Assembly: GCA_964447855.1 (NCBI GenBank)
Contig: CAYUUH010000001.1
Span: 369 to 64,368, forward strand
Direction of reading: 5' to 3'
Origin: an uncultured Methanosarcinales archaeon
GTDB lineage: Archaea; Nanobdellota; Nanobdellia; Woesearchaeales; JAHWIC01
DNA length: 64,000 nt
In this document: piece after piece, positions 17,888 through 64,000 of the stretch
How positions within the stretch are numbered: position 1 is the first letter of the stretch
Layout of the letters: each line of letters starts with the position of its first letter
The notes under the pieces: model-generated
The model's input: the letters and a program-made list of their open reading frames with translations, nothing else
What the model was told of the DNA's origin: nothing
The model's database searches: none
Translations under genes and position numbers: made by a program

Positions 17888-17889
17888 CC

Positions 17890-39017: not shown

Positions 39018-42000
39018 GATATCCGAATTATACCAAGTCATTCCACAAGGAGCGTTCAAGGACGAGAATGAGTTCCGTAGTTATGTTACAGATGAAAATA
39101 AGCTAAAGGAGTTCTATTCTTTATTGCCACAGGGTTCATTTAAGGATGAGGGTGAATTTGTCGGATACTTTGGCGAAGGCTTAAAAAAAAAACAATTTTC
39201 TGTACAAGATTCTCTCTCTCCTGCGTCTGGCAAAGAGGAAATGTCATTCTTGGACGCATCAGGAAAGCCCTTAACTCCACAACAACCATTACCATCGGCT
39301 GAGAAGCCTAAAGAAAGCGGGTTTGTTCGGTTTCATAAAGATTTAGCAAGATCATTAGGTTCTGCGTCCCTAAGAGCTTTAGGCGGGATTACGGGAATAC
39401 CACAGTTTGCCAATAGAACCGTTTCTTCCTTCACCACAAGACCAATTATCAAGGCTATGGGGGGAACTGATGAGGATGCACGTCTCTATGCTGATGCGGT
39501 AATGGCAGCAACTCCATTAGGACAGGCGTCAGTAGGTGGTGAGCAAACCCAACAAAGGTTAAATAAAGAGGCTCAAAAGATTGAGGCTAAGATAAAGCCT
39601 ATTGAGGGTAATATAGTTAAAAATATCCAAGAGGGAGATTATGGGCAAGCAGGTGAACAGCTCGCAAGAGGGGTTGTTCAGTCATTACCGTATCTAGCTA
39701 TGACATTCGCCACATCAGGATATGGAACACCCGCCGTACTTGGGACTATAGGAGCTACGGCAGCTTCTCAGCAGTATAGTGAGTTAGATGATAAAGTTCC
39801 CGAAGGAAAGAAAATAGTTAATTCATGGCTCTATGGGGGATTTGAGGCAGCAGGTGAGTTATTTACGGCTAGTTTAGCTGATGGTATAAAACTCGCATTT
39901 AAAAGCGGATTAAGTGACGTAGCTAAGGATAATCTTATTAAGGGGGCTTCCAAAACCATTTCTAAGGCATTTTTAGGAGAGGGAGCATCAGAGGCAGCCA
40001 CACAGATAGGTCAGAACCTTACTGATATAGTAACAGGGACAGCACCGGAACGAAAGTTATTTGATAATGTTATTGATGCTGCTCTTATTGGGGGAGTATC
40101 GGGCGGTGGACTTGGGACACTTCAGATAGGTGCTTCACTTACGGGAAGAGCAATGGCGTCCGATAAAGAGGTTAAGCAAGTACAAGATAACGTCAATCAG
40201 CAAAAAGTCTTAATAGACCAAATAGACCAAACAGATAGTGACCCTGTAAAGAACGCACTCAAAAGAAGTATAAAAGACTTAAGGGTGCAGGCTGATGAGG
40301 TTATGGATACTAACTATGAGTTAGCCACTAAACTCTCTCCTGAAAAACAAGCACAAGTAGCAGAACTTTACTCGGTTTGGAATGAATTACAGTCAAAAAT
40401 TGACAATAAAGAAGTCATAGAGCAAGAAATTCCCGCTTTAGAAAATACCATTAAGGGAATTAAGGATCAAATTCAGGGCATCAAGGATGATTTGGTTACT
40501 CAGTTAGAAGAAGAAGCTAGGGCAAAGGAAAGCGGAGAACCCGTAAAAAAAGAAACAACCGCAGAACCTAAGGAGGTGGTGGCAGAACCAACAGTAGAAC
40601 AAACCGAAACTCCTATTGAGAAACCACAAAAAGCACCCTATATTGAAATTAATTCAGAAAATATTAGCGAAATTGAAAATAATGAATTAACTTCGCTTCG
40701 TGAACAGGGTGCAACAGAAGAAGAAATAGCATCCGTACAAGAGAATGTAAACTTAATAAAAGAATATCTAGATGAGCTACAAAGACCTGATAGAGAAGAA
40801 GGCGCAGGAGGCGAGGGAGTACTTCGCACAGAAGGACAAGAAAACATTGGAGGCATTACCGAAGCAGAAACAGGAGGAGATGTTAGCGCATATCCAACAG
40901 TTTTGGCAGGAAGAAGAGAGCTCAACAGAGCAGCCAAGTTAACCCCTGAAGAACAAGTTACACAAAGGCTTGCTCCTACAGGAGAGAAATCTAATCTCTC
41001 TGACAAAAACTTTGACTTAGTGCGCACACCGGAGTTCAAGGCTCGGTTTGGTGATTGGCAGAAAGGCGAAGGTAGTCTAGTCCTTGATAGAAATGGAGAG
41101 CCGATGGTGGTCTATCATGGTGCACCTCAGATTTACCCCGAAGGTGTAGACCCACAAAAGACAGCATCAAAGAAATCTTACTTTACAGGGAATAAAGAGG
41201 CAGCTAGAGTTTATGCTCGGTTTAGAAATAAACAACCTGTTATCTATGAAGGTTTCCTTGTAGTGAATGAGTCTGACCTAGAACAAGGTAATCAGATTGA
41301 TAAGCTACCCGGATTTGAAGATACCCACCAAGAATATCTTACGACAAGAAAAGAGCAGTTCATCCCTACAAAGATAACTAAGGTGGGAAAAGTAAAGAAG
41401 GAAAAGAAGGAAGAAACCGCCCAAAGCGAAGATTCTACAGTACCATTAGTAACTGATAAGAAAGTAGAAGACTTTAGCGGGGAACAGCCAAGCATCCTTA
41501 ATCAAGAAACTGATTTACTTGGGAGTCCAAAAGAAGAATGGATGGAGGATTTCTATGATAAGACAGCAAAGAATATCCTAGGGGAATTTAATGGGGATTA
41601 TGCAAGGGCTCGTGAAAATGCAAAGATGAGAGAGGCTTCTTATGCGCTTACCAATAATCAAGGTGTTGCTGATGTTATAAATAAAAGAATAGCTGATAAG
41701 AAAATACAAGTTGAAAAGGCACTTAAAGATGGTAAGTTTCAGAAAGCCATAGCCGATGGCCGCATGACCGCCAATGATGCCAAGACTATTATTGAAAGTG
41801 CGGGACTTGAAGTGCCAAGTGATATTATTGAGACACAGCCCCAAGAGTCTGTTCAAAAACCAACAGAGGTCACAGAAGAGGAACAAGTACCTATTATTGA
41901 ACAAACGGAGTCAAAAGAAGCAATTTCAGCCCCGATAACCGAAGACCAAGGTAAAATACCACCGCCACCACAAAAGCCCGTTAAAGAGGCTGAAAATGCG

Positions 42001-45000
42001 CCAGAAGAGAAAACTCGCACAAGAGAGATCGGCGCAAAGGTTGTAGAGAGTGCAAATGTCAAGCAAGAGGTTAAAGATGCCTTGTTAGAGAATGGCATAG
42101 ACTACGTTCCGAGGGGACAGAAATATACGCTATCAGAACTACAGGAGATAGTTGATATGTTCTCTACCAATGAAGATGGTCTTGATAAGTTAGCACAGAC
42201 GGTCTATGATGTTAAAAACGATATTAAGGGTGATACGAGGATAACTCTTAATGTCTATATAGCCGATAAGTATTCTAAGTTACTTGATGAGGCTACCGAC
42301 CCCAAGACAAGAGAAAAATATCGGAATAAACTAGCAGATGCCTTTATTTTTGGACAGGAGTTTGCTACGGAAGCAGGGCAAACAGTAGAGGCACTAAAGA
42401 GGTGGAGAGAACTTCTTAGTAGAGACCCCGAATCAATTATTGCCATAAGGAAACGTCAGCAGTCTAAATATAATGAGTTTGCCTTAGCGGGTATGGAAGC
42501 AGATATTAAATCCGCTAAAGAGATACTTGACTCTATTGTTAATACCGATGAGTTTAAGCAGATAATAGAATCAGAGGTAAACAAAGAGATAGATAAGATA
42601 GCTAATAAGAAGTATGGTGAGGTAGATAAGAAGAAGATTAATGATTTCTTTGACGGGCTTCTTGTTAAGAACGATAAGGCTTTTGATGCTACGGTAGGTA
42701 TTCCTATTGCTGTTTATAACGGAGCTGTACTTGTTATTAAGAAAGCAGTATTGGCTGGCGTAGATGTAACTAACGCTATAAAGCAAGCAGTAGATTACAT
42801 AGACGAGTGGTATAAGAAGAACTATGCCGAGGGTAAGATACCTTCTCCTGAGTGGAATAAGGACGACTACATGGCTCAAATGGACAAACAACTTAAGCCA
42901 CTGAGCAAGAAAGTCAAGAAAGTTAAGCATAAAGTTACTAAAGCGGTAGAGGATAGTTTAGTTGATAAGATTTACGCTAAGATGTCTACTGCGACTAAAC
43001 CACAACTTAGACGCCTCGTAAGGGAATATATAGCCACACTAGATACTGAAGGAGCAATAAGTGAGCAGAGATTTAAAGATTTATTTGCTAAAGCTATAGG
43101 TCTTGACGTATTAACGGCAGAGGATGAACAGAAGATAAGAGAAACAGCCTTGTCGCTAAAGAACTCTACCAAGGTTGCGGAAAAACTCGTTGCGAAATTT
43201 AAAGAACTCGTTGCAGAGACAGACAATGCTAAGATTAAGCAATTAGAAGAAGAAGTTAAGGTACTTAAGAAAGAGGCTAACAAAGCTAAGTTTGAGGCAC
43301 TAAAGGCTGCAAGGAAACTTGACGGACTGATGACGGATAAGGCTACGTTAGGCAGTACGCTTCATACCTTAATACAGGGTAACTTACTTACAGTGCAGTC
43401 CATGGTGAGTAACGTAGTTGGTAACGCTGTATTCTTGCCGGTAAGAAATCCTTCTTATATGGTTGCTAGTGGACTTGATTTTATAGTTTCTAAGTTATCT
43501 TCAGCATACACTCCACTACTCCAAGACCCATGGGTTAAAGCTAATCCGAGAGTACGAAGGTTAATTGAAAGTCTACCAACACCAAGTAGAGAGTATGACT
43601 ATTTTGCTTCAGTGAGAGGATATTGGTATGGTATGCCTAAGGGATTAGAGGAAGGTATAAGGCAGATATGGGCGGGTACGTTACCTGAAGATCAGTATCA
43701 GCAGTATATTGGACAGGGACTTAATCCATGGAAGGCAGCGTTAAGGCTAAGAGACCAATTAACGGGCAAAGAACAGATAGCTTTTGATACTGCTATGGCT
43801 AACTTCCTTGAAGCATTTCCTACTACCTATATGGCGGAGGGTTTCTTTAGGACACTTAACCTTGGTGATAAGCCATTCAGAAGGGCAGCAGAGAGGTCTA
43901 GGCTTGAAGAACTTGCATCCCTAAAAGGTTTAAAAGGCAATCAAAGAGCATCTTTTATAAATAATCCCGACCCCGATTCAGTAGAGGAGGCACGTAAAGC
44001 AGGGGATGTAGCGGTATATCAGCAAGACACTGTTATTTCTGAGATGTTTTCTTGGCTTAATAAGAGGATAAACAGAGTTGCTGCACAGAAGGCTACAAAG
44101 AGAACGTCAGTCATTGTTTCTACCGTTGGGGCATTACTTAAGGCAACACAAGCACCCTACGTTAAAACGCCTGTAAACCTTATTGGAGAGGCAGTGGATT
44201 ACTCTATACCATCTCTATCTCTTTTCAGGGCTTTATATTACGCCAAGGAAGGCAATAAGAGAAAGTCTTACGAATATTTTGGCAAGGCAGCAGTAGGTTA
44301 CATGCTTATGAACATAGCTTTTTTCCTTATAAAAGAAGGATTACTCAGCCCTCCAACAGATGACGATGAGAAGATAAGACAAGCACAGTATGACGCCAAA
44401 CCTGGATATAGCCTAAACCTTGACGCACTTTGGAGAAGGATTGATCCGTTTGATAACGCCAAAGGTAACTCTGAGTGGAAGGATAAAGATCAGGTTATGA
44501 ATATTCAGAGGTTGGGTGTGTTTTCTATGATACTTATGGGTATGTCTAAAGCCTATGCCGAACTACCTCCTGATGAGATGCAAAAAGAAATAACCTTTCA
44601 ACAAAAGGGGGAGTATGGACTTAGGATGATACCAACAGTAGTGGGTGCTTCATTAGAACAGTCTTTCTTATCAGGAACAGCATCGGGTATCAAGGCTTTC
44701 ACAGAAGGTGGCCCTGCATTTGACAGATGGGCTATAAGCACCTCTAAAGCACTCTCGGCAGTAATCTATCCCAATACACTTGCACAGATAAGTCAGGTAT
44801 TCTTTGACGATAACTACATACGTGAGGTTAAGGATATGTATAGCCGTGATGAGAAGTTTAAGAAACAGATCATCAATACCTTTAAGGATAGAACATTCAT
44901 GGGTAAGGACTTACCCGCTAAGATTACTCTTTGGGGCGAGAAGGTTAATAGAGTACCCGAAGGAGAGTCGTGGGCACACGTAATGTTTGATGTAACAAGG

Positions 45001-45642
45001 TCGGTAGAGTACCAAAAGAGTTCCTTTGGCGTGAGAATGTTCGAGTGGTGGGAGAGATATCGTTTCATTGACGAAACAGAAGCTAAGAAGATATTACCAT
45101 CTATTCCGAGTGCTACTAATACAGTGGGATGGGACGATAGAAATATGACATCTAAAGAGGTTGAAGAGTTTCAGATAGCGGTAGGTCAGAGAAGAAAATC
45201 ATACGTGGAGAACATAATGAACTCAGCCGAGTGGCAAGATATGTCTGATGAGGATAAGATAGTTGAACTTGAAAGAATTTATCGCACTCAGGCGTCTAAG
45301 GTAAAAGCCGGTATGTTCATGCTAGACGTTATTAAGGCAGACAATAAAGTGTTTAAGTTCCTTGACGAGAATGACCTTATACCAATACCAACAAAGACTG
45401 TTACTATAAAACACCAAAGAGATAAGACAAAGCTCGACCCTGAGCAGACAGCAGAATACTATTCTAATGTTCAGAGACATTTTGTAGAGAGAATAAATAA
45501 CTCAGGATTAGCCGAGAGAGAACTAACCGATGACGAAAAGAGCAAGGAAAGGTTGATTAAGCAGGTTAATGGTCATTGGGACAGAGCAAAAGAAATAGCA
45601 AGCAGGGATTGGATTACTTCTAAAATCAGGACAACTAAATAA
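38977..45642 (+). CDS. giant virion-associated protein (candidate ejected cargo or tape-measure-like protein)
   Basis: 2221-aa uninterrupted ORF. N-terminal tandem LxxxxPQGxFKDExEF repeats, an acidic coiled-coil centre and a large α/β C-terminal region. No polymerase motifs recognised. Confidence 0.55.
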   Translation: MRIRPSKTIQMPDKISELYQVIPQGAFKDENEFRSYVTDENKLKEFYSLLPQGSFKDEGEFVGYFGEGLKKKQFSVQDSLSPASGKEEMSFLDASGKPLTPQQPLPSAEKPKESGFVRFHKDLARSLGSASLRALGGITGIPQFANRTVSSFTTRPIIKAMGGTDEDARLYADAVMAATPLGQASVGGEQTQQRLNKEAQKIEAKIKPIEGNIVKNIQEGDYGQAGEQLARGVVQSLPYLAMTFATSGYGTPAVLGTIGATAASQQYSELDDKVPEGKKIVNSWLYGGFEAAGELFTASLADGIKLAFKSGLSDVAKDNLIKGASKTISKAFLGEGASEAATQIGQNLTDIVTGTAPERKLFDNVIDAALIGGVSGGGLGTLQIGASLTGRAMASDKEVKQVQDNVNQQKVLIDQIDQTDSDPVKNALKRSIKDLRVQADEVMDTNYELATKLSPEKQAQVAELYSVWNELQSKIDNKEVIEQEIPALENTIKGIKDQIQGIKDDLVTQLEEEARAKESGEPVKKETTAEPKEVVAEPTVEQTETPIEKPQKAPYIEINSENISEIENNELTSLREQGATEEEIASVQENVNLIKEYLDELQRPDREEGAGGEGVLRTEGQENIGGITEAETGGDVSAYPTVLAGRRELNRAAKLTPEEQVTQRLAPTGEKSNLSDKNFDLVRTPEFKARFGDWQKGEGSLVLDRNGEPMVVYHGAPQIYPEGVDPQKTASKKSYFTGNKEAARVYARFRNKQPVIYEGFLVVNESDLEQGNQIDKLPGFEDTHQEYLTTRKEQFIPTKITKVGKVKKEKKEETAQSEDSTVPLVTDKKVEDFSGEQPSILNQETDLLGSPKEEWMEDFYDKTAKNILGEFNGDYARARENAKMREASYALTNNQGVADVINKRIADKKIQVEKALKDGKFQKAIADGRMTANDAKTIIESAGLEVPSDIIETQPQESVQKPTEVTEEEQVPIIEQTESKEAISAPITEDQGKIPPPPQKPVKEAENAPEEKTRTREIGAKVVESANVKQEVKDALLENGIDYVPRGQKYTLSELQEIVDMFSTNEDGLDKLAQTVYDVKNDIKGDTRITLNVYIADKYSKLLDEATDPKTREKYRNKLADAFIFGQEFATEAGQTVEALKRWRELLSRDPESIIAIRKRQQSKYNEFALAGMEADIKSAKEILDSIVNTDEFKQIIESEVNKEIDKIANKKYGEVDKKKINDFFDGLLVKNDKAFDATVGIPIAVYNGAVLVIKKAVLAGVDVTNAIKQAVDYIDEWYKKNYAEGKIPSPEWNKDDYMAQMDKQLKPLSKKVKKVKHKVTKAVEDSLVDKIYAKMSTATKPQLRRLVREYIATLDTEGAISEQRFKDLFAKAIGLDVLTAEDEQKIRETALSLKNSTKVAEKLVAKFKELVAETDNAKIKQLEEEVKVLKKEANKAKFEALKAARKLDGLMTDKATLGSTLHTLIQGNLLTVQSMVSNVVGNAVFLPVRNPSYMVASGLDFIVSKLSSAYTPLLQDPWVKANPRVRRLIESLPTPSREYDYFASVRGYWYGMPKGLEEGIRQIWAGTLPEDQYQQYIGQGLNPWKAALRLRDQLTGKEQIAFDTAMANFLEAFPTTYMAEGFFRTLNLGDKPFRRAAERSRLEELASLKGLKGNQRASFINNPDPDSVEEARKAGDVAVYQQDTVISEMFSWLNKRINRVAAQKATKRTSVIVSTVGALLKATQAPYVKTPVNLIGEAVDYSIPSLSLFRALYYAKEGNKRKSYEYFGKAAVGYMLMNIAFFLIKEGLLSPPTDDDEKIRQAQYDAKPGYSLNLDALWRRIDPFDNAKGNSEWKDKDQVMNIQRLGVFSMILMGMSKAYAELPPDEMQKEITFQQKGEYGLRMIPTVVGASLEQSFLSGTASGIKAFTEGGPAFDRWAISTSKALSAVIYPNTLAQISQVFFDDNYIREVKDMYSRDEKFKKQIINTFKDRTFMGKDLPAKITLWGEKVNRVPEGESWAHVMFDVTRSVEYQKSSFGVRMFEWWERYRFIDETEAKKILPSIPSATNTVGWDDRNMTSKEVEEFQIAVGQRRKSYVENIMNSAEWQDMSDEDKIVELERIYRTQASKVKAGMFMLDVIKADNKVFKFLDENDLIPIPTKTVTIKHQRDKTKLDPEQTAEYYSNVQRHFVERINNSGLAERELTDDEKSKERLIKQVNGHWDRAKEIASRDWITSKIRTTK

Positions 45643-52754: not shown

Positions 52755-53225
52755 TTACTTGAAATTAAGGTTCGCAAATTCTCCGTGTATTTTAAACGCA
52801 ACTGCGTCTGCGGCTCTCGCAGCTTCCTCCTCTGTCTCAAAATAACCAAGCCAAATCTGTTTCCCGTCTATCCCTCTTATTTTTGCACATACTTTCCCAT
52901 TATCATAAGTCACATACCTATAACCGGAAGCCCCCGTAGGCTTTGAGTTAGCTGAATTTTGTTTGCGTGTACAATTTCTTAAATTAGATTTTTGGTTATT
53001 AAGCCCATTATGATCAATGTGGTCAACGACCATATTATTCGGGGTATTCATAATTAACCTGTGCATCCATACAGCACTCCATACTCCATTCGGACAAATA
53101 TTTCTAACTACATAAAACCCTCCCCCTGCGTCTAATCGTGCAAACCACTTCCATTGCATCAAAAAATCATAATCTTCATCATCAACCAATGCAAACTGCC
53201 CTCTGTTAAGTTTAATTTTCTTCAT
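52755..53225 (-). CDS. HNH-AP2 homing endonuclease (paralog of 6969-7484)
   Basis: MKKIKLNRGQFALVDDEDYDF...VDHIDHNGLNNQKSNLRNCTRKQN...YFETEEEAARAADAVAFKIHGEFANLNF. Confidence 0.8.
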   Translation of the reverse strand: MKKIKLNRGQFALVDDEDYDFLMQWKWFARLDAGGGFYVVRNICPNGVWSAVWMHRLIMNTPNNMVVDHIDHNGLNNQKSNLRNCTRKQNSANSKPTGASGYRYVTYDNGKVCAKIRGIDGKQIWLGYFETEEEAARAADAVAFKIHGEFANLNFK

Positions 53226-54494: not shown

Positions 54495-54668
54495 AACTCA
54501 GAGAACCAAATAAAAAGTCTTTCAAAAGTATCATCGCCTTCATCCCATGGATTAGCTATTGCGTAAAGCAACTGATATCCTGTATAAATCACCGCAGGTA
54601 TTATCCATATAGGGAATAAACATACCACGATAAGAACAATTAGTGTTTTTAAGTGCTTGTTCATAATG
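54495..54668 (-). CDS. 57-aa membrane protein, not in the ORF track
   Basis: Own translation MNKHLKTLIVLIVVCLFPIWIIPAVIYTGYQLLYAIANPWDEGDDTFERLFIWFSEL. Its start overlaps the stop of 54661-55350 and its stop overlaps the start of 54240-54494 (ATGA). Confidence 0.3.
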
Positions 54669-55350
54669 ATTTAAGTATTAGTTTTTCCTCCTCCGAAAGT
54701 ATATCATAAAACAACTTAGCATCTACTTCTTGTCTTTTTTTGAATACATTGAAGCTATTTAAGTTCTCTCTTGTCTTAACATCTACTATTATGTCTGAAA
54801 TTATGGCTTTAGTGGGCGCATGCTTAACGATCTCCTGCTGTGCCATAGCATCCATACCCCAACCTTTTGCTACTCTCCAAAGCGTCCATCCTGCCTCGTC
54901 AAGTATTCTCTTACTGACTGTTTTGCCTATACCGAGTAGAGCCTTACCTTGTAGTCTGACCATCTTACCCTTATCCCTGCCTTGCCCTGAGTAGAAATAA
55001 GCACTCTCTGTACCTATAAGGTCTATGCCTTTCTCTACTTGTTCAAGTGTTTTAAGGTAGTACTGTGTAGAGATTACATCGTCACTGCCCAATATCATAA
55101 CAGCATCAGCACATATAACTTCTCTCATGTAGTACATTGCGTGATTCCACTTCATACTCACTGGTTCATTAGGTCGTGTGACATGAGCAACACTCATTGA
55201 AAGGCAGAGGTTCTTGTCTTCTTCTCCCGACACAACACAGGCGGGGACAAAGATTTGGGTCTCCCTACGGATGCGCTGTATCTGTGCGAGCCAAAGACTA
55301 AGTATCTTTCGCCTTCCGTGGTTAATGGTTATGATGCCGAGGGACTTCAT
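54661..55350 (-). CDS. hypothetical protein, possibly a nucleotide-diphospho-sugar transferase fold
   Basis: 229 aa at the downstream end of the glycan cluster. Confidence 0.3.
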   Translation of the reverse strand: MKSLGIITINHGRRKILSLWLAQIQRIRRETQIFVPACVVSGEEDKNLCLSMSVAHVTRPNEPVSMKWNHAMYYMREVICADAVMILGSDDVISTQYYLKTLEQVEKGIDLIGTESAYFYSGQGRDKGKMVRLQGKALLGIGKTVSKRILDEAGWTLWRVAKGWGMDAMAQQEIVKHAPTKAIISDIIVDVKTRENLNSFNVFKKRQEVDAKLFYDILSEEEKLILKSL

Positions 55351-55742: not shown

Positions 55743-56390
55743 TTATTTTAAGAAATCTTTTATAATATCGTCATGGAGTTTATACGATTTGGTCATTCCC
55801 CATATTGTTTCTTTAGGACTTAGGTAGCCTACTATGCCCGCTCTATGCCCTGCAACCATAAGTTTGACTCCTTGCCGATGACAGGCACGGCTGAATAAGA
55901 CGTCAGCCATATTCGGATGAGGAAAATCTTGCATTGATAATTTGACCATTGATGTATCGAAGCAGAGAACCCCCGTTCCTGCGATGTCTATGACATGATC
56001 CCCGACCACAGAATTTAAGCATCTGTAGTTCTCTTTGAAGTATTTGAAGCCTCTCGGAGGTCGGTCATACCTTTTACCGTGCAGTGACACCGGACAGTTG
56101 TATTGAGCAACCTTCTCCCGCAAGAGCGAAAAGAACTCATCAGTATAAACTAGATCGTCATCACAAATGAAGACTAATCCTTCGACTTCATTGATAAACT
56201 CAAACTTATGAGCGTCTCCCTTACTATTGTCACACATCTTGAAAGTCACATTTGGAATGTCAAGTTCAGGAACAACAGCGTAGTTATTTAAAGCCACATA
56301 GATATGGTCTACATGAGGGGATATTGACTGCAATACAACAGGCAATAGGTTTCTTCTGTTTCCAAGGCTTGCTAAGTGTGCTGTTATCAT
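55743..56390 (-). CDS. glycosyltransferase (GT-A-like, DxD motif ICDDDL)
   Basis: 215 aa. Confidence 0.45.
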   Translation of the reverse strand: MITAHLASLGNRRNLLPVVLQSISPHVDHIYVALNNYAVVPELDIPNVTFKMCDNSKGDAHKFEFINEVEGLVFICDDDLVYTDEFFSLLREKVAQYNCPVSLHGKRYDRPPRGFKYFKENYRCLNSVVGDHVIDIAGTGVLCFDTSMVKLSMQDFPHPNMADVLFSRACHRQGVKLMVAGHRAGIVGYLSPKETIWGMTKSYKLHDDIIKDFLK

Positions 56391-57001
56391 CGGTGCATCA
56401 TACTACTATAATGTTCATCCTGAATAGTTATCAATGATTCCTTGACCTGGTAGAAGTGGAAGCCTTGTCTATTTAGCTTTCTGCTTATGTATGCACCCAC
56501 TCCGCTACTGCCTCTTATCTGACCATTAACCCTGTGTAGTGGTGGTATAACGCCCACCATAGCAAAGAACTTATCCTCGCAAAGAAAGCACATGTCCACC
56601 CATCCTGTCTGCCATACATTACCCTTATCAACGGGTAACATCCTTGTCCAACAAGACTGTCCTAGCCTATCCATATAGAGGTTTAAGCATATCTTTTGCC
56701 GGTCTTCAATGCCTTCCAATATCTCTATTGCCTTTGCAATTTGCGAATCGCAAACAAGGAAGTCATCAGGTATCATAAAGTAATAATTAGCCTGTGGTCT
56801 ATGCCTCCAAAGCATATTCACAAGTTTCCAATAGCCCAACTTACCAAGGTGTTGCTTAGGGTTGATATTAAGAGCCCCACTAATGCTATAATTATTCCCA
56901 TCATGTGCTACTATAACTTCTCCTAGTCCCTGTAAAGAATTAACAAGTCTTTGACAGGACTCTTGTCGGTTATAGGTCGTTATGAGGAAAGCTATGTCCA
57001 T
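56387..57001 (-). CDS. family 2-like glycosyltransferase
   Basis: AFLITTYNRQES and IPDD motifs. Confidence 0.5.
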   Translation of the reverse strand: MDIAFLITTYNRQESCQRLVNSLQGLGEVIVAHDGNNYSISGALNINPKQHLGKLGYWKLVNMLWRHRPQANYYFMIPDDFLVCDSQIAKAIEILEGIEDRQKICLNLYMDRLGQSCWTRMLPVDKGNVWQTGWVDMCFLCEDKFFAMVGVIPPLHRVNGQIRGSSGVGAYISRKLNRQGFHFYQVKESLITIQDEHYSSMMHR

Positions 57002-58245
57002 ATCTTAAGTGCGTCTTTATTATAATCATCTACATCTAGAGACACCTGCTCCCTTAGTGCCATATATCTTTCCTTTGGTATCTTGGGGCAAAAGTAATTA
57101 TGTGGACTTTGGTGGGAAAACAACGACATATCATAAGTATCATTGATTAGTCCCATAGCCTTTACCTCATCAAAAAGATCAGTTCCTTTATATGGAGTGA
57201 AAAAACTGAGTGTTATTCTAAATGGTTTCAGTGATTTAACAAAGGCTATTGATTCAAGTATAGAATCTTCTGTGTCATAGGGAAACCCTATAATCATATA
57301 TGCCTTCCATTGTACTTTATGTTTATTAAGTATTTCAGATGCTCTCATAAAATCACGGGTAGTCTCTCCCTTTTGAATAGCCTTAAGTGTTTCATTATCC
57401 CCGCTTTCTATACCCAAACTCATTTGTCCACACCCAGAGTTTTTCATCATCTGTACCATCTCGTCTGTGATAGAATCTGCACGTGTATCACACCTCCATA
57501 AGGCAGGGATATAATATTTAGAGCAGAACTCTACAAGACGCTTCTTATTTGCCGTAAATGTTTCATCCCAAAATGTAAAGTAATCAGACCCGAAGGAAAA
57601 ATGAACGTGTTTCATCTCTTCGAGTATTCTGTCTATTGACTTATAGGTAACTTTTCTATTCCACATAATCTTAGATGCACAAAAGGAACATCTAAAAGGG
57701 CATCCCCTTGTAGATAGAACATGTGCATAGCCATTAGGCGAATAAGTATCTAACAACAAGTCATAGTTTGGAAATGGGGTTTCGTCAAGATTCTTTAATC
57801 TCCCCCCATGGGATTCATATTCACCTCGAAAGACATCTACCCCATCGGGATAGACACTAGGTTCATTAGAAGGATGGTTCCCCCCCACTATCACAGGAAT
57901 ATTCCGACTCTTTGATATGTCAATAATTTTTAATGCAGATTGAAATTTTACATTAAGCACATTAATCCCAATTCTATCGGGGTATATATCATCAATAACA
58001 TTAACTAATTCTTGCCAAATATGGTGTTGTGGGTTATGGAGTGCATCACGGTAGATGTCATAATGGTTGGCTCTCTCAGAATATCCCGCATAATGTACAT
58101 TTTGCCCCACCTCCATATTCTTAATATAAACATCATCTCCGTCTGATGACATCTGTGACCCCACCGCTAAGAGAGATAAGGGGACATAATCTTGCTCCAA
58201 TCCTAAAAAACGATAAAACGGGGGGTTAATAAGAAGTGTTTTCAT
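56992..58245 (-). CDS. cobalamin-binding-domain (class B) radical SAM enzyme
   Basis: CPFRCSFC is a CxxxCxxC cluster. An N-terminal B12-binding-like Rossmann segment precedes it. Confidence 0.7.
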   Translation of the reverse strand: MKTLLINPPFYRFLGLEQDYVPLSLLAVGSQMSSDGDDVYIKNMEVGQNVHYAGYSERANHYDIYRDALHNPQHHIWQELVNVIDDIYPDRIGINVLNVKFQSALKIIDISKSRNIPVIVGGNHPSNEPSVYPDGVDVFRGEYESHGGRLKNLDETPFPNYDLLLDTYSPNGYAHVLSTRGCPFRCSFCASKIMWNRKVTYKSIDRILEEMKHVHFSFGSDYFTFWDETFTANKKRLVEFCSKYYIPALWRCDTRADSITDEMVQMMKNSGCGQMSLGIESGDNETLKAIQKGETTRDFMRASEILNKHKVQWKAYMIIGFPYDTEDSILESIAFVKSLKPFRITLSFFTPYKGTDLFDEVKAMGLINDTYDMSLFSHQSPHNYFCPKIPKERYMALREQVSLDVDDYNKDALKIWT

Positions 58246-58246
58246 T

Positions 58247-59311
58247 CTAACATCCTAAAACAAGCCTTATGACGGTATCTGATACATTATCTTTTTTATA
58301 ATCAGGCAATACTTCCCATCTCATAAATAAGTTCTTAATATTATGATAAGACCTTAGTATAGTTGGTGTATCTGTACCCGCAAGAATAAGAGAACCATTC
58401 TCTGTCAATTCTTGTCTCTCCGTGGTATTTCTAAGCACTATGCACGGCACTCCGAATAAAGAACACTCCTCTGGTACTGTACCTGAATCAGTAAAGACAA
58501 GACTTGCATATTTCTCAAGTTTAACAAAATCAAAGAATCCGAGTGGTTCAATAATCTGAATATTGGGGTGTAGTTCTATCCCGTTAGCATTAAGTCTGTC
58601 TTTTGACCTTGGATGAAGCGGATAGATTATCTTATTATTTTCAGCTATGTAGTTAATCGCTTTAAATATACTCTCAGTCCTCGTAGGGTTATCAACATTA
58701 TCGGCACGGTGAAGCGTCAGTAATATGTAATCTTTATGGTGAAGCGTCAATTTACCGAGAATAGAGCTATTATCAATACTTAAGGAGTAATAATCAAGCA
58801 CCTCTTTAATCGGATTACCTATCTTAAATGTTTTGTTCTTTGAATACCCTTCTCTTATCAGATTGTCATAAGAGTTATCTGTGTATGGTAGGTTGTAATA
58901 AGAGTGTGAATCAATAATCCTTCTATTGGTTTCTTCTGGAACATCTAAATCATAACACCTATTACCCGCCTCAAGGTGAATAACCTTAATCTTACGTTTG
59001 GTTGCAAGAATTGATAGAAGTCCTGAATTGGTATCGCCAAGGGTAACTATCTTCTCTGGCATGAACTCATTAAGTATCTTCTCTAACTCGGCGAAACCAT
59101 TACTAAGGAAAGCACCCAAAGATTGCTGTTGACTAAAAATATAGTCAGCCTTTCTTATTTTGAGTTCTGAAAAGAACAAGTCACTAAGGCGTGTATCGAA
59201 GTTCTGATTAGTAAAAAGTAGCTTATGGTCACAGACGTTATCTAGCTTTCTGATTATAATAGAAAGTCTAATAAGTTCTGGGCGTGTGCCGACAATAGTT
59301 AAAACCCTCAT
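58247..59311 (-). CDS. UDP-N-acetylglucosamine 2-epimerase family (WecB / FnlC / WbvD-like, non-hydrolysing)
   Basis: MRVLTIVGTRPELIRLSIIIRKLD N-terminal signature. 354 aa. Confidence 0.7.
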   Translation of the reverse strand: MRVLTIVGTRPELIRLSIIIRKLDNVCDHKLLFTNQNFDTRLSDLFFSELKIRKADYIFSQQQSLGAFLSNGFAELEKILNEFMPEKIVTLGDTNSGLLSILATKRKIKVIHLEAGNRCYDLDVPEETNRRIIDSHSYYNLPYTDNSYDNLIREGYSKNKTFKIGNPIKEVLDYYSLSIDNSSILGKLTLHHKDYILLTLHRADNVDNPTRTESIFKAINYIAENNKIIYPLHPRSKDRLNANGIELHPNIQIIEPLGFFDFVKLEKYASLVFTDSGTVPEECSLFGVPCIVLRNTTERQELTENGSLILAGTDTPTILRSYHNIKNLFMRWEVLPDYKKDNVSDTVIRLVLGC

Positions 59312-60330
59312 AAGCCTAAGTCTTGTTTGATAATGTCTAAACCCAAGAGCATAGCCTTAGTTTCTTCAAGAGTAAGTCTCTTTGTGTTATGAGACGTGTA
59401 CTCTACCTCTTGTTCGTTATTTCCTTCAACAAAGTACTTGGCGTAGTTTAGGTCTCTTGTGTCTGAAAAAATCCTGTAGTAAATGCCTATATCAGCCGAG
59501 TTTGCCATTTCTTCCGCATTTAAGAGCGTTTCAAAGAGTTTCTCCCCGTGTCTAGTACCTATCACCCGAATTGGGTTAGATACGCCATAAACGCTTAAAA
59601 TAGCCTCTGCGAGGGTTTGTATTGTACAGGCAGGTGCTTTATGTACAAAGGTATCTCCATTACCACCATTCTCATAAGCATAAACAACAAGGTCAACAGC
59701 CTCTTCAAGTGTCATCATAAACCTCGTCATGTCGGGATTGGTTATGGTCAGCGGTCTACCCTCTTTTATCTGTTTAATAAAAAGTGGAATAACAGAACCC
59801 CTTGACGCCATCACATTGCCATACCTAGTTGCACAGAAAGATATTCCTTCGGGAAGGTTTCTAGACTTAGCTAGCATAACCCTCTCTGCAAGTGCCTTTG
59901 TCATACCCATAGCTGATGATGGATAACACGCCTTATCCGTTGAAAGGACTATTACTTTGTTGACACTGTTTTTAATTGCAGAGTCAAGCACATTCTCAGT
60001 GCCTATAATATTAGTCTTAACCGCCTCGATAGGGAAGAACTCACAGGATGGTACTTGCTTTAGTGCGGCAGCATGAAAGACAAAATCAACACCTTTCATA
60101 GCTTCATCAACACTACGGAGACTTCTTACATCACCTATGTAGTATTTTATCTTTGGGTTATTATACTGCCACCTGATATCTTCTTGTTTCTTCTCGTCCC
60201 TGCTAAAGATGCGAATCTCTTTAAGGTCAGAGTTTAAAAATCTATCGAGTACGGCATTGCCAAATGAACCCGTACCCCCTGTAATGAGCAATACTCTATC
60301 TTTGAACATTCCTTTTGAATAAGTTAACAA
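59308..60330 (-). CDS. UDP-GlcNAc 4,6-dehydratase/5-epimerase, CapE/FnlA/WbvB family
   Basis: ILITGGTGSFGNAVL...EIRIFSRDEKKQ...HAAALKQVPSCEFFPIEAVKTNIIGTENVL. Confidence 0.8.
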   Translation of the reverse strand: MLTYSKGMFKDRVLLITGGTGSFGNAVLDRFLNSDLKEIRIFSRDEKKQEDIRWQYNNPKIKYYIGDVRSLRSVDEAMKGVDFVFHAAALKQVPSCEFFPIEAVKTNIIGTENVLDSAIKNSVNKVIVLSTDKACYPSSAMGMTKALAERVMLAKSRNLPEGISFCATRYGNVMASRGSVIPLFIKQIKEGRPLTITNPDMTRFMMTLEEAVDLVVYAYENGGNGDTFVHKAPACTIQTLAEAILSVYGVSNPIRVIGTRHGEKLFETLLNAEEMANSADIGIYYRIFSDTRDLNYAKYFVEGNNEQEVEYTSHNTKRLTLEETKAMLLGLDIIKQDLGL

Positions 60331-60535
60331 ACCAACCTAATATTGGGGTTGCCCCCATGGGTCTTACACCCATATTATAATGTCTACATTCCTCGCATGG
60401 GGTAAGTAGTGTCATTCCAGATGTATCAACCTCTGTGCAGTCAAGCATCTCTCCCACATGAGGACATGTGTTGCAGTTCTCCGAGTTCATAAGCCCACAA
60501 TAGGCTTCGCAATAAGTAGAGTACGGACATTTCAT
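60296..60535 (-). CDS. small Cys-rich ORF between the reductase and dehydratase genes (uncertain)
   Basis: 79 aa with 9 Cys. Spans an otherwise 200-bp gap. Confidence 0.2.
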   Translation of the reverse strand: MKCPYSTYCEAYCGLMNSENCNTCPHVGEMLDCTEVDTSGMTLLTPCEECRHYNMGVRPMGATPILGWFVNLFKRNVQR

Positions 60536-61350
60536 AGCTTATAGTTTTTTTGTTCAACAATCTGATCATATATTGACGGTATATCAAATAATAGTGGGTA
60601 TTTAGACGAAAGAGTTCTGTCACAAAAGATAGCATCTTTTTCTACAATCCGATTCCCTAGTTTATAAACATCATTAATAATACTCACAAGCTGTGCCTTA
60701 CTTACGGAGTCGGGCGAAAAGACGTGTCTCGTACCATGAAAGAAGAAATACTCGCTGATTATCTTCTCACATATCTTAGCAAACTGTAAACATGTAATGC
60801 CATTCCAAAAATGGTTAGTATAGCCTGTTATTGTGGTATTTTCGTGCGACCTAACCCACTCAAGCAGATCGCTACAGTTATTGGTAGTCTCTCCAATAAT
60901 AGAAGTTCTTATCACGGTACAGTTCTGTGGTTCACCAAGAGACTTACTAAGTCCATAGATAGAAACCTCATTCTTAACGCTATCCTCATTATAATTACCG
61001 TCCTTCCCCGTGTAAACACAATCAGTTGTTATATGAATCATGTTTGCGCCTACTTCTTCACAGTAATCGGCAAGTATCCTTGGAAACAAAGAATTAGCAA
61101 TAAGAAAATCACTGTCAGGACATACTCTCTTATTAGTAATACCAATGCAGTTTATGACAACATCTCCCTGTTTAATATTAAGCCAATCAAGTTGGTTATG
61201 CAAGCCCTGTGTATCGAGGACATTAAGTTGTTTCCTTGTTACCGGCTCAGACCTTTTTAAGTAAGAGTGGACATATCTGCCCAACATCCCTTTAGCTCCT
61301 AAAACAAATGTTCTATTTCTCATTTCCTGTTTTATATTCTGATTGACCAA
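60532..61350 (-). CDS. RmlD/WbvR-like NAD(P)H-dependent 4-keto-6-deoxysugar reductase
   Basis: VLGAKGMLG Rossmann motif, YGLSKSLGE YxxxK motif, RTSII. Confidence 0.6.
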   Translation of the reverse strand: MVNQNIKQEMRNRTFVLGAKGMLGRYVHSYLKRSEPVTRKQLNVLDTQGLHNQLDWLNIKQGDVVINCIGITNKRVCPDSDFLIANSLFPRILADYCEEVGANMIHITTDCVYTGKDGNYNEDSVKNEVSIYGLSKSLGEPQNCTVIRTSIIGETTNNCSDLLEWVRSHENTTITGYTNHFWNGITCLQFAKICEKIISEYFFFHGTRHVFSPDSVSKAQLVSIINDVYKLGNRIVEKDAIFCDRTLSSKYPLLFDIPSIYDQIVEQKNYKL

Positions 61351-62014
61351 TGCCTATGTTTACTGCGTACTCATCGTCTATTAAAACTGCTGTGCGATAA
61401 CCTAATCTATGGTAGGCTTCTCCTATTGCATACTCCTTATGCCAAATAGTAGGTTTACTCCACGAACCCGTATATCTTATATCCGAGTAAGGCGCTACCT
61501 TTTTATAGTCTGAGAGGCGTTTTAAGCCACAAGCAGTAGCGAACCCATGCCAACCATTATCGTAGCCTTCAAAGCCCTTAAATATGTTTTCTGAGGCAAG
61601 CCTAAAAGGAACGCCATAAGCAACAAACACATCCTTGTCCATTGGGTGATTATTATAGTCTTTAAGCCACACTTCCTCTATCTCTGCACGTTGCCTCATA
61701 ATAGCCAAAGACTTCTCAATAAATTCACCCCTTGTAACCATCCAATCATCTTCACAATGAAAAAAATATTCTGTTTTAATATGAGCATAACCGAGGTCAA
61801 TACTTTTCATCAGCCCGACATTCTCTTTATTTAAAACAAGGGTAAAGTCGGGATAAGACTCCTTAAGTTGAAGGTGGATATCCTCGTCTGCCGAGTCATT
61901 TACAATGATTATTTCAGATATTGGATAGTTATTATGATCAATAAAGGCATCTATTGTACGCCTTAATAATCCTATCCTTCTGCAAGAAAAAAATATAGCT
62001 GTTACTGGTTCCAT
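61313..62014 (-). CDS. glycosyltransferase (GT2-like: IIIVNDSAD, CEDDW)
   Basis: 233 aa. Confidence 0.45.
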   Translation of the reverse strand: MEPVTAIFFSCRRIGLLRRTIDAFIDHNNYPISEIIIVNDSADEDIHLQLKESYPDFTLVLNKENVGLMKSIDLGYAHIKTEYFFHCEDDWMVTRGEFIEKSLAIMRQRAEIEEVWLKDYNNHPMDKDVFVAYGVPFRLASENIFKGFEGYDNGWHGFATACGLKRLSDYKKVAPYSDIRYTGSWSKPTIWHKEYAIGEAYHRLGYRTAVLIDDEYAVNIGIGQSEYKTGNEK

Positions 62015-62105: not shown

Positions 62106-63083
62106 TTAGTAACGTCTGTTTTTCTGCCACTCATAGGCTGATTTCAATATCTCGTCCAGTCCTCTCTTGGGCGTCCATCCAAGTAAAGACTTTGCCTTAG
62201 TTGAGTTAGAAACAATCTCTGACGGGTCTCCCTTGCGTGGGGGGGCTATTGTATAAATAATCTTCTTGCCTGTCATCTGTTCTACTGCATGTATGATTTC
62301 AAACACACTATATCCCTGCTCATGTCCTAAGTTGTAGATTTGATTCTTGACATCTTCATTGTGCATCTTAGCCATGGCAAGAAGGTGTGCATCTGCAATA
62401 TCAAGTACATGGAAGTAGTCTCTAATTCCCGTCCCATCCCTTGTTGGAAATTTATCTCCATAAACTACAAGTGGTTTGTCGTTGTAGATAGCCTTCCTTA
62501 CAACCTGGGGGATAAGATGCGTTTCTTCCCTTCTCGCCTCGCCATGTCTTTCTGATGCTCCTGCCACGCAGAGATAACGGAATATAATATAGTTAAGGTC
62601 ATAAGCCACGCTAAGGTCTCTCAGTATTTGCTCTACCATTAACTTAGAAGTTCCATAGGGGCAAATAGGTATCTGCGGATGGTTCTCATCCATGGGATTG
62701 TATTGTGGCTCTCCAAACACTGCTGCCGTAGAAGTAAATATTATATTCTTAACCTTATGCTTAACCATGTGGTGTAAGAGGGTAAGCGTCTGTGCCGTAT
62801 TATTGTGGTAATAAAGACATGGATTAACAACAGAATTAGATACATGAGCAGATGCCGCCAAATGAATGACAAAATCTATCTTATACTCTCCGAATACCCA
62901 ATTCAAAACATTAGGATTAGCAAAGTTCTCTTTAAAAAACAAAGCCCTATTATCTACCGCCTCTTTATTACCAGTACTGAGATCATCAAGCACAATAACG
63001 GAGAAACCGCTTTGGATTAAAACCTCTGTGACTACTGAACCTATGTAGCCTCCACCACCTGTGATTAAGACTTTTTTCTTCAT
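62106..63083 (-). CDS. UDP-hexose 4-epimerase, GalE/Gne family
   Basis: VLITGGGGYIGS...YGTSKLMVEQILRDL. Confidence 0.75.
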   Translation of the reverse strand: MKKKVLITGGGGYIGSVVTEVLIQSGFSVIVLDDLSTGNKEAVDNRALFFKENFANPNVLNWVFGEYKIDFVIHLAASAHVSNSVVNPCLYYHNNTAQTLTLLHHMVKHKVKNIIFTSTAAVFGEPQYNPMDENHPQIPICPYGTSKLMVEQILRDLSVAYDLNYIIFRYLCVAGASERHGEARREETHLIPQVVRKAIYNDKPLVVYGDKFPTRDGTGIRDYFHVLDIADAHLLAMAKMHNEDVKNQIYNLGHEQGYSVFEIIHAVEQMTGKKIIYTIAPPRKGDPSEIVSNSTKAKSLLGWTPKRGLDEILKSAYEWQKNRRY

Positions 63084-63625
63084 AACTTATTAAAGCATAA
63101 AATTGTGTTAGAAAACCAAGGTAGTGTACTATGTGACCTGAGTAACGTAGATGTTTTCGCATCATAAGTAAACCCACGCTTCTCTACCTCTGATATAACA
63201 TAATCGTTATTCTGGCAGTTTACATGACCTGTTCCTCCCTGACCAACAATAGCCCAACTCATACATATATGTCTTGATGCTGACTTGCAAATATTGTCAA
63301 TAAATACCTGCTCGTATTCTTTTGGGATGTGTTCTCCCACCTCAAGGCATAAGATAAGTTCAAAAAGACCAACATCAGTAGGTATAGAGAAGTCTCTTAC
63401 GCTACATTGACCATTAGTTATCTGAGATGTAAGGGGATTCCCGTCAAAACCAACACAAAAGATACCATGATCGAGAAAAAACTTAGTATAACTGCCATCA
63501 CCGCATCCTATATCAACTATTGAATTAACATCATAGGCTTGCATTATAGCGTAATTTAGGCTTTTATCCCACATGTGGGTTTTAATTTCGTCTTCTGAAG
63601 TCCAGTAACCGTGGTCGTGTATCAT
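63080..63625 (-). CDS. class I SAM-dependent methyltransferase
   Basis: VDIGCGDGSYT (motif I). Confidence 0.6.
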   Translation of the reverse strand: MIHDHGYWTSEDEIKTHMWDKSLNYAIMQAYDVNSIVDIGCGDGSYTKFFLDHGIFCVGFDGNPLTSQITNGQCSVRDFSIPTDVGLFELILCLEVGEHIPKEYEQVFIDNICKSASRHICMSWAIVGQGGTGHVNCQNNDYVISEVEKRGFTYDAKTSTLLRSHSTLPWFSNTILCFNKL

Positions 63626-63645: not shown

Positions 63646-64000
63646 TTATAGTTCATCATACAAAGGTAGACTTCTTATGTATTCCGAATTATTTATTAAG
63701 CAAGATGGACGTTCTTTCATATAATTAGCCGGATTAAGGTCGTTATAAAGGTAGATAACCTCTTCGATAAACTTGGTATGTTTTGCACCTGCCATCTCAA
63801 GCATAGGATACATAAATGATTGGTCAGTAGCCCCAACAAGATAATTTCCTACTGTATCACGTAAATCCTTATCTTCAATCTTATCCCACAACCACTTTTT
63901 CCATGTCTTAAGGTGGCTTGTTCTCCATGCCCCACTTCTGCGATAAGTCCTGTGGTCAGGGATTGGGGTGCAATAATTATGATAAGTATGGCTCATTGGC
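63646..64000 (-). CDS. hypothetical protein, probably the C-terminal part of a longer gene running off the window
   Basis: Open minus-strand frame to the window edge. Confidence 0.3.
   Translation of the reverse strand, partial: PMSHTYHNYCTPIPDHRTYRRSGAWRTSHLKTWKKWLWDKIEDKDLRDTVGNYLVGATDQSFMYPMLEMAGAKHTKFIEEVIYLYNDLNPANYMKERPSCLINNSEYIRSLPLYDEL

Follow-up and report, generated by a model that had tools for sequence, protein, structure and literature searches.

A compact class B-type radical SAM protein among glycosyltransferase genes in the genome of an uncultured phage

The minus strand of a 64,000-nucleotide stretch of DNA (assembly GCA_964447855.1, contig CAYUUH010000001.1, positions 369 to 64,368; hereafter the window) carries at 56992..58245 a gene for a 417-residue protein of the radical S-adenosylmethionine (SAM) superfamily, which begins with an ATG codon. 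The gene is embedded in a cluster of sugar-related genes. The window is a phage genome, distantly related to podophages of Flavobacterium and Cellulophaga and with a crAss-like domain. On its plus strand lie genes for a large terminase, a portal protein and giant virion proteins. The terminase is ~23% identical to the Flavobacterium and Cellulophaga podophage terminases, a resemblance that suggests a Bacteroidota host. A first-pass annotation of this DNA missed the phage setting; the cluster resides in a phage genome and not in a cellular polysaccharide locus.

The radical SAM protein consists of two recognizable domains. Pfam matches Radical_SAM (PF04055) to residues 178-335 with 81 bits (E 1.4e-22; cutoff 29.5) and B12-binding (PF02310) to residues 58-144 with 32.8 bits (E 7e-8). 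An AlphaFold2 (AF2) model calculated with 48 homologs as input has a mean predicted local distance difference test score (pLDDT) of 92.7 and a predicted template modelling score of 0.90. In the model, a five-stranded Rossmann domain of the B12-binding type (residues 1-145; 57811..58245) is followed by a short linker, the partial TIM barrel of the radical SAM core (residues 171-345; 57211..57735) and a long C-terminal helix. More than 100 radical SAM structures match the model at E<=1e-3. The motif CPFRCSFC (residues 182-189; 57679..57702) provides the CxxxCxxC arrangement for a [4Fe-4S] cluster, and its cysteines C182, C186 and C189 are invariant across the 48 homologs, which share 47-93% pairwise identity. 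The core also contains the invariant motifs WRCDTRAD, SxGxE and WKxY. The fold and domain architecture are those of class B, with a B12-binding-type Rossmann domain ahead of a radical SAM core. Both the radical SAM motif and the B12-binding-like segment preceding it, as recognized in the first-pass annotation, are thereby borne out.

The N-terminal domain has features of its own. It contains a family-specific insertion with residues Y52, G54, Y55, R58 and W77, and the motif VGGNHP (57871..57888) after the fourth β-strand, which is of the COG1032 type ‘GG.H.t’ and has G121, G122 and H124 invariant. Twenty residues of this domain are invariant among the 48 homologs, and its majority frequency is 0.67 compared with 0.71 for the core. 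Conservation so close to that of the core shows that the N-terminal domain is functional rather than vestigial. In addition to the cluster ligands, three cysteines (C241, C252 and C272) are 92-100% conserved among the homologs. One homolog, P0094 (693 residues, 59% identical), is interrupted within its CxxxCxxC motif by an intein of ~273 residues (...GCPYR / intein / CKFCAS). The intein sits exactly at C186, which is the +1 extein residue, and its insertion point corresponds to position ~57690 of the window. Inteins usually occupy the best-conserved positions in strongly selected genes, and the location of this one in the iron-sulfur motif suggests strong selection on the enzyme in these phages.

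The gene for the radical SAM protein and that for a small class I SAM-dependent methyltransferase (63080..63625, minus strand, 181 residues) belong to one tightly packed minus-strand block of sugar genes, an arrangement far beyond chance. The first-pass annotation had placed both enzymes inside a sugar cluster, and the block indeed contains GalE, a family 2 glycosyltransferase (GT2) and nucleotide-sugar genes. The methyltransferase contains DxGCG and GQGGxGHVN motifs. Its assignment as a separate class I enzyme stands on a Methyltransf_23 match exactly at the Pfam cutoff (27.0 bits, E 4e-6) and on an AF2 model with a class I methyltransferase fold (pLDDT 94.4). A fold search with this model retrieved generic small-molecule methyltransferases (ChlM, NmbA and NodS) with TM-scores of 0.6-0.7; by sequence, its matches in the PDB are marginal. 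A lookup of the exact protein sequence led to a 3.9-kb fragment.

Between the methyltransferase and the radical SAM gene, five genes that overlap or abut follow in order on the minus strand. The first encodes a UDP-glucose 4-epimerase, GalE (62106..63083; TIGR01179, 367 bits, cutoff 262), and the second a GT2 of 233 residues (61313..62014; Glycos_transf_2, 36.5 bits). The other three are specific to this lineage. They encode an RmlD-like 4-keto reductase of 272 residues (60532..61350; RmlD_sub_bind, 63 bits; NCBIfam rmlD, 59 bits), a putative UDP-GlcNAc 4,6-dehydratase/5-epimerase of the CapE/FnlA type (59308..60330; TIGR04130, 501 bits, below the cutoff of 730; 460 bits to FnlA, 4j2o, and 449 bits to CapE) and a non-hydrolysing UDP-N-acetylhexosamine 2-epimerase of the WecB/FnlC type (58247..59311; TIGR00236, 241.5 bits, cutoff 210). 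The 2-epimerase gene ends one base before the start codon of the radical SAM gene. No two-domain reductase of the CapF/FnlB type was found, and the 272-residue reductase matches only RmlD-type proteins in the PDB and only rmlD in NCBIfam. The combination of CapE-type, RmlD-type and 2-epimerase enzymes fits the WbvB/WbvR/WbvD route to UDP-N-acetyl-L-rhamnosamine (UDP-L-RhaNAc) or UDP-N-acetyl-L-quinovosamine (UDP-L-QuiNAc). It points to these products rather than to UDP-N-acetyl-L-fucosamine (UDP-L-FucNAc).

On the other side of the methyltransferase gene, 63646..64000 (minus strand) encodes the C-terminal part of a 240-residue GT2, recognized through tblastn orthologs, that runs past the end of the window. 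A contig that overlaps this end (L026) contains the complete GT2 gene and one further GT2. Another GT2 of 352 residues (5801-6859, plus strand; 68.5 bits) is located just upstream of the terminase gene and distant from the main sugar cluster. In all, the phage has at least four confirmed GT2 enzymes, namely those at 61313-62014 and 5801-6859, the one cut off by the window end and the further one in L026. Three orphan open reading frames (ORFs) with DxD-like motifs add to this set. All three are on the minus strand and may encode GT-A folds. The first (56387..57001, 204 residues) overlaps the stop codon of the radical SAM gene, contains ‘PDD’ and matches TIGR04440 weakly (E 0.005); it has no homolog in the other loci that carry the radical SAM gene. 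The second (55743..56390, 215 residues, ‘CDDD’) and the third (54661..55350, 229 residues, ‘GSDD’) have no match in Pfam, NCBIfam or PHROG. They are 41% and 38% identical, respectively, to the products of 9737-10390 and 10687-11385 in a related phage locus, L017. A scan of 54-64 kb for promoters and terminators gave fewer sites than shuffled sequence.

We compared the gene neighbourhoods of eleven distinct phage loci with the radical SAM gene, the window included (loci are designated L001, L002 and so on). The gene lies among glycosyltransferase genes in all eleven, with families GT2, GT25, GT11, GT10 and GT1 represented. GT25 is found in three of the loci, GT11 in four and UDP-galactopyranose mutase in three. 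An ortholog of the GT2 at the window edge is present in five loci. It is located directly upstream of the radical SAM gene in L005, L016 and L017, several kb downstream of it in L001 and ~5 kb from it in the window. In tblastn searches, the window-edge GT2 is 55% identical to genes abutting the radical SAM gene in L005, L006, L016 and L022. The 233-residue GT2 of the window has a 63% identical ortholog beside the methyltransferase gene in L017.

The methyltransferase is the other recurrent neighbour. Orthologs of the window enzyme occur in six distinct loci; in five of them the gene abuts the radical SAM gene, and in the window it is ~5 kb away. The window enzyme is 51% identical to the abutting methyltransferase in L017, 50% to that in L007, 46% to that in L018 and 31% to that in L008; in a separate alignment, the values for L007 and L008 were 51% and 33%. 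In L020, a methyltransferase domain forms the C-terminus of a 385-residue ORF directly abutting the radical SAM gene. Several of the other loci contain methyltransferases of unrelated types. The minimal module, seen in L008 and L009, consists of a glycosyltransferase, the methyltransferase and the radical SAM protein. No short-chain dehydrogenase/reductase or other reductase was found in the minimal modules L007, L008, L017, L018 and L020. In related phage contigs, other genes have been invaded by inteins or LAGLIDADG elements (L008, 4862-7138; L007, 16920-20213), and one of the invaded genes encodes a GT1 beside the methyltransferase and radical SAM pair.

Homologs of the three lineage-specific genes, for the dehydratase, the reductase and the 2-epimerase, are missing from all ten other distinct phage loci. 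In the syntenic L017, GT2, radical SAM, methyltransferase and GT2 genes are contiguous without Fnl genes and are followed by homologs of the window ORFs at 55743, 54661, 54240 and 53212. The absence of the three genes elsewhere and the contiguity in L017 indicate that the 6-deoxy-N-acetylhexosamine genes were inserted specifically in this lineage, where they now stand between the methyltransferase gene and the radical SAM gene. Judged by gene content, these three genes are a lineage-specific add-on and not dedicated partners of the radical SAM protein. This contradicts the first-pass annotation, which had tied the protein to the dehydratase, reductase and epimerase. The co-expression with these enzymes that it proposed would probably supply the wrong substrate, because the genes are missing from the other loci. 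Its broader suggestion of a tailored, specialised glycan is a reasonable one, given a radical SAM protein and a methyltransferase in a sugar cluster.

Two further observations concern the composition of these loci. L001 (Logan SRR7134660_7449, 4696-21260) is a glycan island of ~17 kb with at least 18 genes, which encode the compact radical SAM protein, a second B12-type radical SAM protein of 504 residues, GT1, GT4, GT25, two GT10, two GT2, GT7C, UDP-galactopyranose mutase, adenosine 5′-phosphosulfate (APS) kinase, a sulfotransferase, a Methyltransf_21 protein and a CMP-sugar synthetase. This gene set implies a sulfated, heavily tailored glycan. Furthermore, a second radical SAM protein of ~370 residues without a B12-binding domain recurs near the B12-type protein in three phage and two cellular loci, including L007 (13362-14471), L023 (6603-7739), L025 (5781-6938) and the Omnitrophota locus L012 (11497-12492), where it has a SPASM domain.

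The radical SAM protein belongs to a tight clade (47-76% identity) that was found only in phage or viral contigs in our searches. A word-indexed search returned 353 homologs at E<=1e-5, with more than 100 clusters 50-76% identical to the window protein and almost all members 410-420 residues long. A scan of IMG/VR yielded ten loci with 47-74% identity. In a scan of 185,579 bacterial and archaeal species with one genome per species, the best match was only 36% identical, compared with 47-74% for viral contigs, and the compact clade therefore appears to be virus-restricted. No cultured phage was found to carry it. A tblastn search of GenBank phages found only ~23-25% identical matches to the core, in Streptomyces phage SF3 and one faecal phage; no cultured phage has the radical SAM protein or a close homolog of the methyltransferase, and megablast of the 10-kb cluster against GenBank phages gave no match. 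PHROGs has no family for the radical SAM protein or the three orphan ORFs.

In an exhaustive profile search, the compact clade collapses to a few clusters at 50% identity, located at the edge of a large family of ~490-500-residue proteins with 10,271 clusters at E<=1e-30. The nearest cellular relatives are ~30% identical and ~505 residues long. A 507-residue member from Chloroflexi aligns over the full length in hhalign (probability 100, 34% identity), and the phage proteins have in common with it the Rossmann-domain insertion GY..R..Y..Y...H.vW.E and the motif GG.H.t...GE.E. The relatives in an Omnitrophota metagenome-assembled genome (MAG; L012) and a Chloroflexi MAG (L013) have B12-binding scores of 62-81 bits, with 81 bits for the Chloroflexi protein. 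Both are encoded in polysaccharide loci with Wzx, Wzy, glycosyltransferase and short-chain dehydrogenase/reductase genes, immediately beside class I methyltransferase genes. Since the association with glycan loci and methyltransferases also exists in both cellular relatives examined, it may predate the phage clade.

Several radical SAM families can be set aside. The first-pass annotation had named coproporphyrinogen-oxidase-like and anaerobic sulfatase-maturase-like proteins as alternatives. The HemZ model scores 37 bits compared with a cutoff of 321, and the HemN fold matches with a TM-score of only ~0.35. Pfam finds no SPASM domain, and the protein has no cysteine-rich C-terminus. A MiaB-like methylthiotransferase was considered because of a fold match with a TM-score of 0.64 and was rejected, as the N-terminal domain lacks conserved cysteines for an auxiliary cluster. 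Sequence places the protein in the radical SAM superfamily, with class B architecture but outside every characterised subfamily. The comparison with class B families that had been called for thus supports the assignment in part. The architecture agrees and the full-length fold matches include the cobalamin enzymes TsrM, CysS, MgmA, OxsB and TokK (Foldseek, TM-scores 0.53-0.67); no subfamily cutoff is reached, and the closest solved structure is that of AprD4.

Methylation would be the most likely chemistry for this protein, and we place cobalamin-dependent C-methylation of a sugar at close to an even chance, if slightly under it. Every characterised group in the B12-radical SAM network includes C-methyltransferases, and precedents for C-methylation of sugars exist in GenK, GenD1, Fms7 and MoeK5 (PMC12931638). 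Methylation would fit the minimal modules of glycosyltransferase, methyltransferase and radical SAM protein, because it requires no partner enzyme. The strong B12-binding domains of the cellular relatives also tilt the balance toward it. That the protein binds cobalamin, transfers a methyl group and acts on a sugar, and which acceptor carries the product, we infer. The [4Fe-4S] cluster on C182, C186 and C189 would reductively cleave SAM to generate a 5′-deoxyadenosyl radical. The radical would then abstract a hydrogen atom from an unactivated carbon of a sugar, either in a common nucleotide-sugar or, more likely, in a growing oligosaccharide. Transfer of a methyl group from methylcobalamin bound on the N-terminal Rossmann domain would yield a C-methylated (branched or chain-extended) sugar as the most probable outcome. 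The class I methyltransferase may independently add an O- or N-methyl group. In this lineage, the CapE-type, RmlD-type and 2-epimerase enzymes would supply a 2-acetamido-2,6-dideoxy-L-hexose of the L-RhaNAc or L-QuiNAc type and not L-FucNAc, and GalE would supply UDP-galactose. The four or more GT2 enzymes would build the glycan on an acceptor in the cytoplasm, for which a virion protein is the most plausible candidate. The methyltransferase was also considered as a cofactor-recycling partner of the radical SAM protein, a role that was rejected because its family occurs with glycosyltransferases in phages without the radical SAM gene.

A number of results weigh against C-methylation within a dedicated module. 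The B12-binding score of the window protein is marginal (32.8 bits, with a gathering cutoff of 32.1), and in several homologs the domain is weak, faint or absent in Pfam. The cellular relatives have a linker subdomain of ~30 residues that was lost in the phage clade. A profile of residues 1-165 retrieved no solved cobalamin domain from the PDB and nothing significant. The protein reaches no NCBIfam equivalog or subfamily cutoff, and all its matches are confined to the core. Its scores are 109 bits for HpnJ (cutoff 578), 106 for PhpK (600), 102 for BchE (481), 101 for ApyD (750), 80 for Sden_1168 (575), 73 for AprD4 (NF033070; 500), 68 for QCMT (360), 51 for BzaD (450), 47 for HpnR (650) and 25 for KedN5 (700). 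In this series, the non-methylating HpnJ, BchE and AprD4 are interleaved with the methylating PhpK, ApyD, Sden_1168 and QCMT. The best solved match is AprD4, which is non-methylating and cobalamin-free. Moreover, homologs of the methyltransferase occur with glycosyltransferases on phage contigs that have no radical SAM gene, and the pair is therefore not obligate. Taking these points together with those in its favour, we hold the proposal as a whole, that of a phage-adapted class B radical SAM protein in a recurrent glycan-tailoring module with a glycosyltransferase and a methyltransferase, tentatively, at a little less than even odds.

The AprD4 match provides the strongest alternative, in which the protein would be a cobalamin-independent enzyme that dehydrates a sugar to a keto-deoxy sugar, or catalyses epimerisation, oxidation or an HpnJ-like ring contraction, without methyl transfer. 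The Rossmann domain would then be structural or bind the substrate, and the 5′-deoxyadenosyl radical would take a hydrogen atom from a vicinal diol of the sugar. AprD4 heads the PDB matches in phmmer (70 bits, single sequence), in the family-profile search (107 bits, compared with 62 for QCMT/MgmA; core region) and in Foldseek (TM-scores 0.75/0.70, E 4e-20). This rank is in part a sampling effect, since the PDB has no structures of HpnJ, PhpK and BchE, and the AprD4 family model scores only 73 bits with a cutoff of 500, below PhpK, BchE and ApyD. C241, C252 and C272 align with cysteines of AprD4 and of the Chloroflexi relative and not with those of the methylase QCMT, which tilts away from methylation, as does the marginal B12-binding score in the phage clade. 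The strong B12-binding scores of the cellular relatives speak against this alternative. The top NCBIfam match is HpnJ, a hopanoid-biosynthesis-associated protein listed among the non-methylating or unknown transformations (PMC12931638). AprD4-type enzymes sit inside the B12-radical SAM network and are indistinguishable there, and AprD4 and ArsL have Rossmann-like domains and bind no cobalamin; according to this 2026 review, neither sequence nor structure can separate methylating from non-methylating members (PMC12931638). The similarity to AprD4 is limited to the radical SAM core, and none is detectable between the N-terminal domains. AprD4 needs a dedicated reductase, AprD3 (PMC5461906). The minimal phage modules contain no reductase of any kind, and since none is conserved with the phage protein, the balance tilts toward methylation. 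We consider an AprD4-like activity unlikely, at somewhat over one chance in four; the probability left over from this and from C-methylation falls to other substrates.

As to what the glycan is attached to, a virion protein would be the most plausible acceptor, followed by a host surface glycan and then by DNA. The cluster proteins all lack transmembrane segments. Among the window ORFs, we found no membrane machinery such as a flippase, a polymerase, a priming transferase or a GtrA/B component.

Remodelling of the host surface is the next alternative. The module might modify a host polysaccharide (O-antigen, capsule or a Bacteroidota protein O-glycan) through the lipid-linked intermediates, flippase and polymerase of the host, during infection or lysogeny, for superinfection exclusion or a change of receptor, with the radical SAM protein tailoring a sugar of that glycan. 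The nearest cellular relatives are encoded in surface-polysaccharide loci of the Wzx/Wzy type, and the glycosyltransferase families around the radical SAM gene are typical of lipopolysaccharide or lipooligosaccharide synthesis. Such remodelling is also the reading given for the glycosyltransferase-rich regions of pelagiphages, which likewise contain radical SAM cassettes (PMC7029224). The presence of a tyrosine recombinase in the phage genome also speaks for it, but the recombinase gene lies inside the structural module, and no prophage copies of the radical SAM clade were detected in the 185,579 cellular genomes. The window also lacks a priming transferase, flippase, polymerase and GtrA/B-type membrane component, and devoting over 10 kb out of 73 kb to the module would be an unusually large investment for seroconversion. 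We estimate this alternative at about one chance in four, just behind the AprD4-like activity.

Hypermodification of the phage DNA, with a glycan attached by glycosyltransferases to a modified pyrimidine and tailored by the radical SAM protein and the methyltransferase for evasion of host nucleases, is improbable: although documented phage glycosyltransferase clusters put mono- to tri-saccharides on 5-hydroxymethylcytosine or 5-hydroxycytosine with enzymes that resemble those of lipopolysaccharide and teichoic acid synthesis (10.1101/2023.12.21.572611; PMC13326640), all module enzymes are soluble, and in L002-L004 (9187-14495) the radical SAM gene lies beside a thymidylate kinase gene, with a 461-residue Thy1 (ThyX-family) gene amid DegT, short-chain dehydrogenase/reductase and GT2 genes, such glycosylation needs a pyrimidine-hydroxyl handle made by a ThyA-family hydroxymethyl- or hydroxy-dCMP synthase or by a C5-methyltransferase with TET/5mYOX (10.1101/2023.12.21.572611; PMC13326640), and Pfam detects no ThyA, ThyX, TET/2-oxoglutarate dioxygenase, DNA C5-methyltransferase or deoxynucleoside monophosphate kinase among the 81 window ORFs, which cover 64 kb of the ~73-kb contig. 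The small methyltransferase resembles small-molecule enzymes and has no nucleic-acid-recognition domain, and six or more glycosyltransferases, including the usually fucosyl- or galactosyl-transferring GT10, GT11 and GT25, point to a glycan larger than those known from DNA.

The remainder of the window has several features of its own. The virion module encodes proteins of 1617 (29030-33883, plus strand) and 2221 residues (38977-45642, plus strand), and its structural ORFs include a crAss muzzle C-terminal domain and an ART-PolyVal ADP-ribosyltransferase domain. A 482-residue protein of the module (34997-36445, plus strand) ends in a Fib_succ_major domain (61 bits) and is possibly a receptor-binding protein or tail-fibre tip. 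The tyrosine recombinase (20438-21361, plus strand; Phage_integrase, 56 bits, with N-terminal SAM-like domains) is encoded in the midst of the virion structural module, with the portal region on one side and the putative capsid genes on the other. Homing endonucleases are unusually numerous, with two of the GIY-YIG/NUMOD3 type, one HNH_3 and one HNH protein that matches PHROG; their ORFs are at 26033-26920 (plus), 6918-7484 (plus) and 52755-53225 (minus), together with another GIY-YIG/NUMOD3 ORF. A tRNA-Met gene (CAT) is located at 1146-1217 (plus strand), near the left end of the window.

The boldest form of our proposal, in which the protein would be the first cobalamin-dependent radical SAM enzyme of a virus and would serve uncultured phages of aquatic and sediment bacteria to put a radical-derived C-methyl group or another branch on a phage-assembled glycan of virion proteins or DNA, seems doubtful to us, at roughly three chances in ten. 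In that case, the glycan decoration of these phages would depend on the corrinoid supply of the host. Should the module decorate virions or DNA, virus-encoded glycosylation as in giant viruses, mycobacteriophages and T-even-type DNA would extend to many uncultured phages, and radical SAM chemistry would join the viral glycosylation repertoire. The compact clade would also gain a function; it borders a family of more than 10,000 uncharacterised B12-radical SAM clusters, two sampled members of which are encoded in cellular polysaccharide loci. At 417 residues, the protein would be a small and tractable class B scaffold for mechanistic and structural studies. The conserved partners to be considered with it are the GT2 and the methyltransferase rather than the CapE-type, RmlD-type and 2-epimerase enzymes.

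The viral systems that glycosylate giant-virus capsids, mycobacteriophage virions and phage DNA resemble the window in having virus-encoded nucleotide-sugar enzymes, several soluble glycosyltransferases and methyltransferases, with which a glycan is made without recourse to host export machinery (PMC9614988; 10.1101/2023.12.21.572611; PMC13326640). They differ in that the DNA systems need an enzyme that makes the handle, and none was found among the window ORFs. In the papers examined, we found no description of a cobalamin-type radical SAM enzyme in any of these three viral systems, and no characterised cobalamin radical SAM enzyme from a polysaccharide locus or a phage glycosyltransferase cluster. 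“Radical SAM cassettes” together with glycosyltransferases have been noted in hypervariable regions of aquatic phages (PMC7029224).

Among cellular proteins, the B12-binding radical SAM proteins of ~490-510 residues in L012 and L013 are homologous to the phage protein over the full length, have the same Rossmann insertion and are encoded beside glycosyltransferase and class I methyltransferase genes. They differ from it in their extra linker subdomain, much stronger B12-binding scores and the Wzx/Wzy export genes in their loci. AprD4 (PDB 6FD2; 457 residues), the 1,2-diol dehydratase of apramycin synthesis, deoxygenates an aminoglycoside sugar. It is similar to the phage protein in size and two-domain layout, and both have the motif W-x-C-[DE]-T-R-x-D and the three extra cysteines. 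In contrast, the N-terminal domains of the two have no detectable sequence similarity, and the AprD4 partner AprD3 has no equivalent conserved with the phage protein. AprD4 is cobalamin-free, whereas the phage protein may bind cobalamin. The sugar C-methylases GenK, GenD1/GntE, Fms7 and MoeK5 have, like the phage protein, a B12-binding-type Rossmann domain followed by a CxxxCxxC core; they are encoded amid sugar and glycosyltransferase genes and act on unactivated sugar carbons (PMC12931638). They are cellular enzymes of antibiotic pathways and typically of greater length, whereas the phage protein, predicted from sequence, has 417 residues and no linker subdomain and reaches no subfamily cutoff. 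By analogy, the phage radical SAM protein may work most like these sugar C-methylases or like AprD4.

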